This document shows positions 57,019 through 57,584 of a stretch of DNA of 64,000 bases, piece after piece. Position numbers and translations under genes: made by a program. The notes under the pieces were generated by a model. It did no database searches and had not been told where the DNA came from. It was given only the letters and a program-made list of their open reading frames with translations. The stretch lies in assembly GCF_058153355.1 (NCBI RefSeq), contig NZ_CM177019.1. One strand, given 5' to 3'. How positions within the stretch are numbered: position 1 is the stretch's first letter; every line of letters starts with the position of its first letter.

Positions 57019-57198
57019 TTACTCTGATTCTTTGGCCTTGCGGCGCTGGCGGCGTTTGATCTCACCTTCAAGTGCCGAAACGATAAATTGTCCAGTGCTT
57101 TCGCCTTCTTCCTTTAAACTTTCTACAGCGTCAGCTATTGCATGGGGTACTCGTGCCTCAAGTTTTTTTGATTTTCCATTAACTGCTTTCGTTGCCAT
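57019..57198 (-). CDS. small ribbon-helix-helix-like DNA-binding protein (59 aa), putative island repressor
   Basis: MATKAVNGKSKKLEARVPHAIADAVESLKEEGESTGQFIVSALEGEIKRRQRRKAKESE shows a beta-strand/helix/helix pattern typical of Arc/CopG RHH proteins. It is divergent from an iteron-flanked promoter. Confidence 0.6.
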   Translation of the reverse strand: MATKAVNGKSKKLEARVPHAIADAVESLKEEGESTGQFIVSALEGEIKRRQRRKAKESE

Positions 57199-57219
57199 AT
57201 CTGATTCCCTTGTTATTAG

Positions 57220-57299
57220 GTGGCTGACAGTATACACACAAGAAAATGGAAAAACACTATTGACGTGGCTGACACCTGTTACTAGTATAGTGGCTGACA
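57220..57299 (+). promoter_or_regulatory. sigma70 promoter TTGACG-N17-TAGTAT embedded in three GTGGCTGACA direct repeats
   Basis: -35 at 57260-57265 and -10 at 57283-57288, with an exact 17-nt spacer. GTGGCTGACA occurs at 57220-57229, 57265-57274 and 57290-57299. Confidence 0.7.
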
Positions 57300-57562
57300 C
57301 CTTTATTAAGGTAATCGATGAAAAGACAAAGCCCGCAGGCGCTACCAACACCAACGGGCTTCTAACCACCAACGATAGAAAGCGTATCGAGGTAGCTATG
57401 TTAAATCATACCACACACCCGCAAGGGCGGGACTCGCACAACCTGAATAAAGCGGGGGTAAAAAACCAGTTGATCGCCACTGCCAGCCAGGGCTATGATT
57501 TATCTGCACCAGCAAAATCTGGTGCCCGGATTGGCGTCCTGAAAATTCTGAAGGCGACATAT

Positions 57563-57584
57563 GACGCGCCGAGCGTCTTTTTTT
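57563..57584 (+). terminator. intrinsic terminator (GACGC-GCCGA-GCGTC + T7)
   Basis: A 5-bp GC stem with a 5-nt loop is followed by TTTTTTT. It lies ~290 nt downstream of the 57260-57288 promoter. Confidence 0.65.

Follow-up and report, generated by a model that had tools for sequence, protein, structure and literature searches.

We have analyzed the region between positions 57019 and 57584 of a 64,000-nt stretch of DNA, the window (NCBI RefSeq assembly GCF_058153355.1, contig NZ_CM177019.1). The region looks like the control region of a phage-satellite island that resembles the Gram-negative phage-inducible chromosomal islands (PICIs) and is integrated at tRNA-Gly(CCC). It probably exerts control in two tiers, a ribbon-helix-helix (RHH) protein switch at a rightward promoter, P1, and RNA immunity of the phage P4 type downstream of it, perhaps together with a translational override of that immunity. 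The analysis draws on about 180 related loci overall, from many Enterobacterales. A 26-mer from the conserved leader was used as bait and retrieved 120 loci from IMG/VR, and a profile search with the repressor, limited to one genome per species, gave 64 further loci in Xenorhabdus, Pectobacterium, Yersinia, Serratia, Proteus, Morganella, Dickeya and others (the other-species loci). An exact scan of genome contigs with the 26-mer gave no match. The features of the switch and of the RNA cassette are as follows.

56755–56961, minus strand: 68-aa open reading frame (ORF), phrog_21027 (PHROG E = 1.7e-29), directly 3' of the repressor gene and on the same strand
57019–57198, minus strand: YlcI/YnfO-family ribbon-helix-helix gene, 59 aa, candidate repressor
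57220–57230: putative operator O1, GTGGCTGACAG, an exact repeat adjoining the start of the repressor's own transcript
57229–57234, minus strand: -10-like hexamer TATACT of the putative leftward (repressor) promoter, from conservation
57260–57288, plus strand: predicted promoter P1, -35 TTGACG (57260–57265), 17-bp spacer, -10 TAGTAT (57283–57288), from a promoter scan
57265–57275: putative operator O2, GTGGCTGACAC, sharing the final base of the -35 and taking up the start of the spacer
57290–57300: putative operator O3, GTGGCTGACAC, beginning 2 bp past the -10 and covering the predicted +1
57398–57976, plus strand: 192-aa open frame made up of 18 codons of ancestral icd, the Ash region and Icd; homologue of P4 Eta/Kil
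57470–57499, plus strand: predicted promoter P2, -35 TTGATC, 18-bp spacer, -10 TATGAT, from a promoter scan; positional homologue of P4 PLE
57506–57584, plus strand: isrK/seqA-like RNA with intrinsic terminator (57563–57584), from Rfam and a terminator scan
57531–57537 and 57546–57554, plus strand: target sites a1 and b1 inside isrK
57646–57733, plus strand: C4/CI-like antisense RNA (Rfam RF01695)
57689–57698 and 57705–57711, plus strand: C4 pairing elements, loop b' and junction a'
57738–57744 and 57769–57777, within 57738–57779, plus strand: downstream targets a2 and b2
57788–57976, plus strand: nested icd' gene, 62 aa, Kil/Icd analogue (NCBIfam NF033153, 69.3 bits against a cut-off of 25)

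The RNA immunity cassette and the long open frame

By homology and covariation the region carries a complete RNA immunity cassette of the P4/P1 type, with homologues of seqA, CI and seqC inside the long frame. The Rfam family isrK (RF01394) matches 57506–57583 with 68.8 bits (gathering score 50), and C4 (RF01695) matches with 79.9 bits (gathering score 45); phage P4 itself scores 74.9 bits for C4 and has isrK and C4 matches in the same order. Rfam also gives a sub-threshold c4-a1b1 match. IsrK has been equated with P4 seqA and C4 with the P4 CI RNA (PMC3632133, PMC4825925, PMC10111431). The C4 segment folds at -46.4 kcal/mol (z = -4.8). P2 ends 7 nt upstream of the start of the isrK model, with a predicted RNA start at ~57506; its hexamers are conserved and its 18-nt spacer is variable, and its -10, TATGAT, aligns codon for codon with the annotated -10 of P4. 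The terminator at 57563–57584, already seen in an earlier note made from the letters of the window, was recovered by the scan as a hairpin (57563–57577) followed by a T-run.

The C4 loop b' is complementary to b1 and b2, and the junction a' to a1 and a2; b2 overlaps the Shine-Dalgarno sequence AAGGAGG (57773–57779) of the nested icd' gene, whose ATG is at 57788. These pairings were examined in 15 cassette-bearing loci, 14 of them distinct. For a1-a' and b1-b', 98.2% of cells are paired and 12 of 16 pairs have changed on both sides; for a'-a2 and b'-b2 the figures are 97.8% and 11 of 16. None of 500 shuffles was as good in either case, and slid controls were 24–53% paired overall, or 31–53% for the a1-a' and b1-b' set. 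There are at least six RNA specificity types, among which the loops and both target sites co-vary three ways.

The long frame begins at ATG 57398, preceded by GAGG at 57389–57392, and runs without an in-frame stop until 57976; the TAA within CTGAATAAA is out of frame relative to this ATG. Its product is 39% identical (E = 1e-26) to P4 Eta, a 199-aa frame that extends from the vis stop codon across seqA, cI and seqC and finishes where kil does. Of 15 distinct cassette loci, 14 keep the long frame open, and the other two frames hold 1–10 stops; just 0.7–3% of shuffled sequences are free of stops. The window protein, at 192 aa, is 13 residues longer than the 179-aa protein of locus L001, with the frame kept. 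Variation is spread evenly over the codon positions (57/97, 48/98 and 55/96), with no bias towards the third, and as we read the alignment, the frame in which the terminator segment is translated differs from variant to variant. It is the openness of the frame that is conserved and not the peptide, which fits the published logic of P4.

The earlier note had supposed that P1 alone makes a non-coding leader or small RNA of ~290 nt ending at 57584, and that read-through of its terminator controls the icd/primase operon. P1 and the terminator do lie ~290 nt apart, and transcripts from P1 would meet the terminator, but this account of the region is unlikely. Between the two elements the note had found only very short ORFs of 15 aa each, whereas the terminator is crossed by a conserved homologue of P4 eta, a frame that begins at ATG 57398 behind a Shine-Dalgarno sequence. 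A PLE-like promoter lies inside the supposed leader, 7 nt from the isrK model, and the homologous RNAs of P4 and Gifsy-1 each start from a promoter immediately before them. The small RNA that ends at the terminator is thus most likely one of ~78 nt from P2, and not one of ~290 nt from P1. The suggestion of P4-type termination immunity held as to kind, given the homologues of seqA, CI and seqC, but the effector and its target were missed: C4 and the icd ribosome-binding site both lie past the end coordinate of the note, which had also overlooked P2 and the isrK match.

A second alternative is that the long Ash-Icd frame encodes a functional controlling protein and that the isrK and C4 matches are secondary. 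The frame does match Pfam Phage_ASH (PF10554) at residues 34–140 (E = 4.8e-36) and NCBIfam phage_ICD_like at residues 144–187, the PHROG families that match it are labelled transcriptional regulators, and it has stayed open in nearly all cassette loci. We nevertheless consider this quite unlikely. The substitutions are those of a sequence without third-position bias. On our reading of the alignment, the terminator segment stands in varying frames, and wherever the a and b elements differ the amino acids differ radically too. Conservation lies in the pairing, with its three-way RNA covariation, and the Pfam match covers exactly the two RNA genes. In nucleotide terms the PF10554 match is 57497–57818, which is exactly the conceptual translation of the isrK and C4 RNA genes. 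Since third-codon-position bias is lacking, the Phage_ASH "family" may for the most part be a reflection of RNA genes that lie within an open frame.

The nested icd' product starts MATTPT, and P4 Kil starts MATTLT. In most islands the leader ATG starts an Icd of ~67 aa directly (for example L188); in the window the cassette lies after codon 18 of icd. In three loci (L012, L102 and L107) the cassette junction lies five codons later (compare 57449–57452 and 57826–57840 of the window), and L012 has a WRF motif on either side of the cassette, YIWRF before it and FLWRF after it. Gain or loss of the cassette by recombination between short WRF-type repeats is plausible from these sequences.

The cassette is present in 18 of the 120 IMG/VR loci (~15%) and in none of the 64 other-species loci; a search of the cassette-less loci for a hidden cassette elsewhere found none. 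Repressor types and RNA types assort independently. Five IMG/VR loci (L040, L079, L065, L082 and L055) have a second, more diverged isrK-C4-like segment ~200 nt past the first (nhmmer E about 1e-10), which suggests stacked RNA immunity modules. Compared with most relatives, the window has 39 extra nucleotides in the spacer between terminator and C4, which is similar to the longer spacer of P4. We rejected the idea that these 39 nt are an insertion bringing a new promoter, as they align with the P4 spacer and offer a -10 only, and are more likely ancestral. The -10-like sequence in this spacer is a perfect TATAAT at 57625–57630, with no recognisable -35.

The divergent switch and its candidate repressor

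The upstream half of the region bears out most of what the earlier note had seen there. The 59-aa RHH-like gene it described is an ORF read from 57198 to 57019 on the minus strand, and its product matches the NCBIfam model YlcI_YnfO_N (NF041551) with 64.4 bits against a cut-off of 30. The protein has no Pfam hit and no sequence hit in the PDB. An AlphaFold model built with 32 homologues (pLDDT 88) shows an extended N-terminus followed by two helices; the model thus has the strand-helix-helix arrangement of ribbon-helix-helix repressors and predicts that fold for the protein. In RefSeq, "Icd-like" coding sequences of 270–310 aa are annotated antisense across the repressor gene (L188, 15126–16058; L001, 6176–6988), and the YlcI-like gene of L188 carries no RefSeq annotation. 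Annotation pipelines miss the repressor gene and call a spurious long Icd-like protein.

P1, likewise reported in the note as TTGACG-17-TAGTAT, is present at 57260–57288 with 9 of 12 consensus matches. Over 102 distinct loci the TTGA of its -35 is conserved in 91–95%, and by eye the 17-bp spacer is kept ahead of a variable -10 in related sequences. On the leftward side, most related loci keep O1 at a distance of 21 nt from the ATG. Next to it comes a conserved CAGTATAC, whose conservation in the same set is 68–89% and which recurs in most other genera.

The repeat GTGGCTGACA occurs as exactly three exact copies, at 57220, 57265 and 57290, and nowhere else in the 64 kb, in agreement with the note; a search tolerating one mismatch gives 13 matches, where 3.55 ± 1.65 are expected. 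The operators have the 11-bp form GTG-N5-CAC. Throughout the 120 IMG/VR loci a word of this form stands at three fixed places, beside the repressor's TATACT, in the P1 spacer and at the P1 +1. The word varies between loci and its three copies change in concert. The same three-site geometry is found in the 64 other-species loci, and the third copy is inverted in some specificity types. Altogether 23 N-terminal repressor variants map onto operator words. Among 61 usable other-species loci, the mean O2 Hamming distance is 0.75 when two loci share the strand motif and 4.82 when their motifs differ, and 0 of 2000 permutations gave an association as good. The motif KSKKLEARVP pairs with GTGGCTGACAC in the window and in nine loci with diverged flanks (eight Xenorhabdus species and one Enterobacteriaceae metagenome-assembled genome). 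There is strong comparative support for the view that the three repeats behave as operators of a divergent switch, as the note had proposed, and that they track the N-terminal strand motif of the repressor, not AlpA.

The repeats might instead be bound by some other factor: AlpA, a host protein, or the primase if the repeats served as origin iterons. AlpA is the known activator in Gram-negative PICIs (PMC6092414), and linkage could mimic the co-variation of a protein with its sites. We regard this as very unlikely, since in genera whose flanks have diverged the words still go with the RHH strand motif, and since the sites are arranged around the -35, -10 and +1 of two divergent promoters. AlpA was rejected as the binding factor because one identical AlpA sequence is found with four different operator words. 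The idea of origin iterons, and with it the "iteron" label of the note, was rejected on position, the repeats flanking promoters and not an origin, and because published work puts the PICI origin downstream of pri (PMC10111431) in a rep-ori replication module (PMC6092414). That the RHH protein is an antitoxin paired with the adjoining 68-aa ORF, regulating its own operon only, is most improbable and was rejected: the ORF is absent outside Escherichia-type loci, being missing from 64 of 64 other-species loci that retain the switch, it has no toxin-family match, and two of the three operators lie on the opposing promoter P1. Because the 68-aa ORF is present in 73 of the 120 IMG/VR loci and in none of the 64 other-species loci, it is an optional partner of the repressor gene.

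The repressor switch is near-universal among related islands. EcCICFT073, the model Gram-negative PICI of E. coli CFT073, has it at L190 9474–9860 (NC_004431, about 1380473–1380860). The divergent RHH repressor gene there is C_RS30120, with strand residues QALKA where the window protein has KKLEA, and the three operators, GTGGGCCACAC, are of the type GTGGG(G/C)C(A)CAC. The leader hairpin and Icd are present as well, and the island has no RNA cassette.

A proposed mechanism and its relation to known systems

In the first tier of the mechanism that we propose, the YlcI/YnfO-family RHH protein would bind the three GTG-N5-CAC operators. O1, at the start of the repressor transcript, would provide autoregulation, and O2 in the P1 spacer together with O3 over the +1 would repress P1 by occlusion; both this repression and the activity of P1 as a promoter are predicted from sequence. 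In the second tier P2, inside the long frame, would make the isrK/seqA-like RNA of ~78 nt, mostly ending at the 57563–57584 terminator, and read-through would yield the C4/CI-like RNA. Pairing of its a' and b' elements with a2 and b2 would mask the icd' ribosome-binding site and block translation, and polarity from the blocked icd' would also shut off the replication genes that follow. Inside isrK, the a1/b1 copy may be a second target or a decoy. On induction, once the repressor is gone, transcripts from P1 would carry the Shine-Dalgarno sequence and ATG 57398, and ribosomes would read the 192-aa frame through isrK, the terminator, C4 and a2/b2, overriding both termination and antisense pairing. 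The homology and covariation of the RNA tier were computed here; its activity, that is the antisense block of icd' translation and the polarity on replication genes, we infer from P4, P1 and Gifsy-1. The least certain step is the override by translation from P1.

Several points weigh against this two-tier scheme. The repressor gene adjoins its operators, and the association of the two could partly reflect linkage and not recognition, although conservation of the operator word against drifting flanks argues for recognition. P1 and P2 are consensus matches for which the support is conservation, and the putative leftward promoter has no recognisable -35. The isrK segment alone folds no better than shuffles (z = -1.1), and the terminator stem has just 5–6 bp. 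The translation override is argued from the P4 analogy and from frame conservation. Finally, the operon downstream is interrupted by insertion sequence (IS) elements, and the module may be non-functional here.

Among known systems, the immunity region of the satellite phage P4 is one of the closest. In P4-type immunity, pairing by CI causes premature, Rho-dependent termination. According to the published account (PMC10111431), a constitutive promoter lies within eta, and its leader transcript stops early and is processed to CI; Kil is a truncated Eta, and termination is prevented when full-length Eta is translated from an upstream promoter. The window shares with P4 the order of elements, PLE-seqA-CI RNA-seqC within eta/kil and upstream of the alpha primase, as well as the isrK and C4 Rfam matches, the aligned -10 and a near-identical terminator sequence. 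It further shares the long frame across the RNAs (39% identical), a nested ORF starting MATT at the downstream target, and a primase operon downstream. The differences are that P1 is guarded by a divergent RHH repressor, where the upstream promoter of P4 is guarded by Vis/Delta; that the long frame has no translationally coupled alpA/vis gene; and that the nested product is Icd-like, with the cassette lying inside the icd gene of a PICI backbone.

A similar likeness exists to the immI locus of P1 and P7 (a1b1-c4-a2b2-icd-ant). Both have a two-loop antisense RNA that pairs with an upstream and a downstream target, the latter on the icd ribosome-binding site, both have specificity types that differ in loop sequence, and in both an icd-like gene follows directly after a2b2. 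In P1/P7, too, a protein repressor acts on the upstream promoter (PMC8198154). However, that repressor is C1 and not an RHH protein, and here no ant follows icd; the AntA-family gene lies upstream, at 55564–56364. The IsrK locus of Salmonella Gifsy-1 (isrK-orf45/STnc1160-anrP) has an isrK-family RNA, a leaky terminator and a complementary downstream RNA inside an ORF (PMC4825925), but an antirepressor and AntQ take the place held here by icd' and replication genes. In Gifsy-1, IsrK is made from its own promoter and the short RNA activates translation in trans (PMC4825925); the family match of the short RNA is the only feature shared with that dual-function RNA. The Stl/Rpr repressors of Gram-positive PICIs resemble the present switch in that a divergent repressor gene faces the satellite replication operon (PMC6092414), but they belong to an unrelated family and are large helix-turn-helix proteins, compared with the small RHH protein here.

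The RNA tier belongs to a system that is already known, and its presence in PICIs is in print (PMC10111431). What may be new, provisionally, is the repressor half only, joined to known RNA immunity. The 2018 paper that defined the Gram-negative PICIs calls their global repressor "unclear" (PMC6092414), and in an incomplete search of the literature, which makes the novelty provisional, we came across neither a described function for YlcI/YnfO proteins nor an RHH repressor reported from these islands. Tentatively, and leaning slightly towards doubt for so broad a statement, we suggest that YlcI/YnfO RHH proteins are master repressors of Gram-negative PICIs; that strand residues ~11–15 set the N5 of GTG-N5-CAC, giving dozens of immunity types; and that in a minority of islands the switch is stacked on a P4-type cassette, which eta-like translation from the derepressed promoter overrides. 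The occurrence of the switch in EcCICFT073 and across Enterobacterales makes the repressor candidate testable in an existing experimental system, and a correspondence between strand and operator would amount to a natural collection of small repressors that are orthogonal to one another.

Leader hairpins and the surrounding island

The remaining features of the leader and the landmarks of the island are listed here.

52707–52780: tRNA-Gly
52906–54309: int
55288–55485: AlpA (PF05930)
57329–57361, plus strand: two-part hairpin AGCCCG...CGGGCT in the 5' leader of P1 transcripts, from folding and compensatory changes
57373–57392, plus strand: small hairpin CGAUA/UAUCG, loop variable, directly beside the Shine-Dalgarno sequence GAGG (57389–57392)
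61149–62189: D5_N/P4-type primase

Both of the hairpins pointed out in the earlier note are present. That at 57329–57361 folds at -13.3 kcal/mol (z = -3.2), and an equivalent folds in 38 of 38 distinct variants with many compensatory changes, for example AGCCCG/CGGGCU and AGGCUG/CAGCCU. The other, CCCGC-AAG-GGCGGG at 57418–57431, lies inside the 26-mer used to fetch the IMG/VR loci and is invariant, so that covariation cannot test it. The small hairpin at 57373–57392 has one compensatory variant, in L053.

The flanks of the window are E. coli-like (xdhA, actS and tRNA-Gly(CCC)). The island contains int, AlpA, the AntA-family gene, the switch, DUF4222 and a P4-type primase; int, alpA and the primase are co-oriented beside the tRNA, which is the layout of Gram-negative PICIs. 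The intact islands related to that of the window are Gram-negative PICIs, L188 being one of them. An Rfam match to the int-alpA RNA was found at 54202–54269, in the 3' end of the integrase gene (45.5 bits, gathering score 35.8). The AntA/AntB antirepressor-family gene (PF08346) at 55564–56364 lies between alpA and the switch and reads towards the leftward repressor operon. It is a matter of speculation whether convergent transcription from an AlpA-activated promoter could interfere with expression of the repressor.

The gene that follows icd' is a small ORF split by an IS66-family element (tnpA, tnpB and tnpC, with IS66-family genes at 58075–60438). Its halves flank the element at 57969–58001 (N-terminus, MINLSLTDLNR) and 60521–60655 (C-terminus), and the gene is intact in L054 and L188. 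Further on, an IS110-family transposase gene (62248–63423) truncates the primase, and because of this cut the replication module of the island looks defective. As the IS66-family and IS110-family elements break the operon downstream, the switch may survive here only as an immunity remnant. At the very end of the window an identical pair of 78-aa ORFs, at 63558–63794 and 63763–63999 and 205 nt apart, indicates a tandem repeat.

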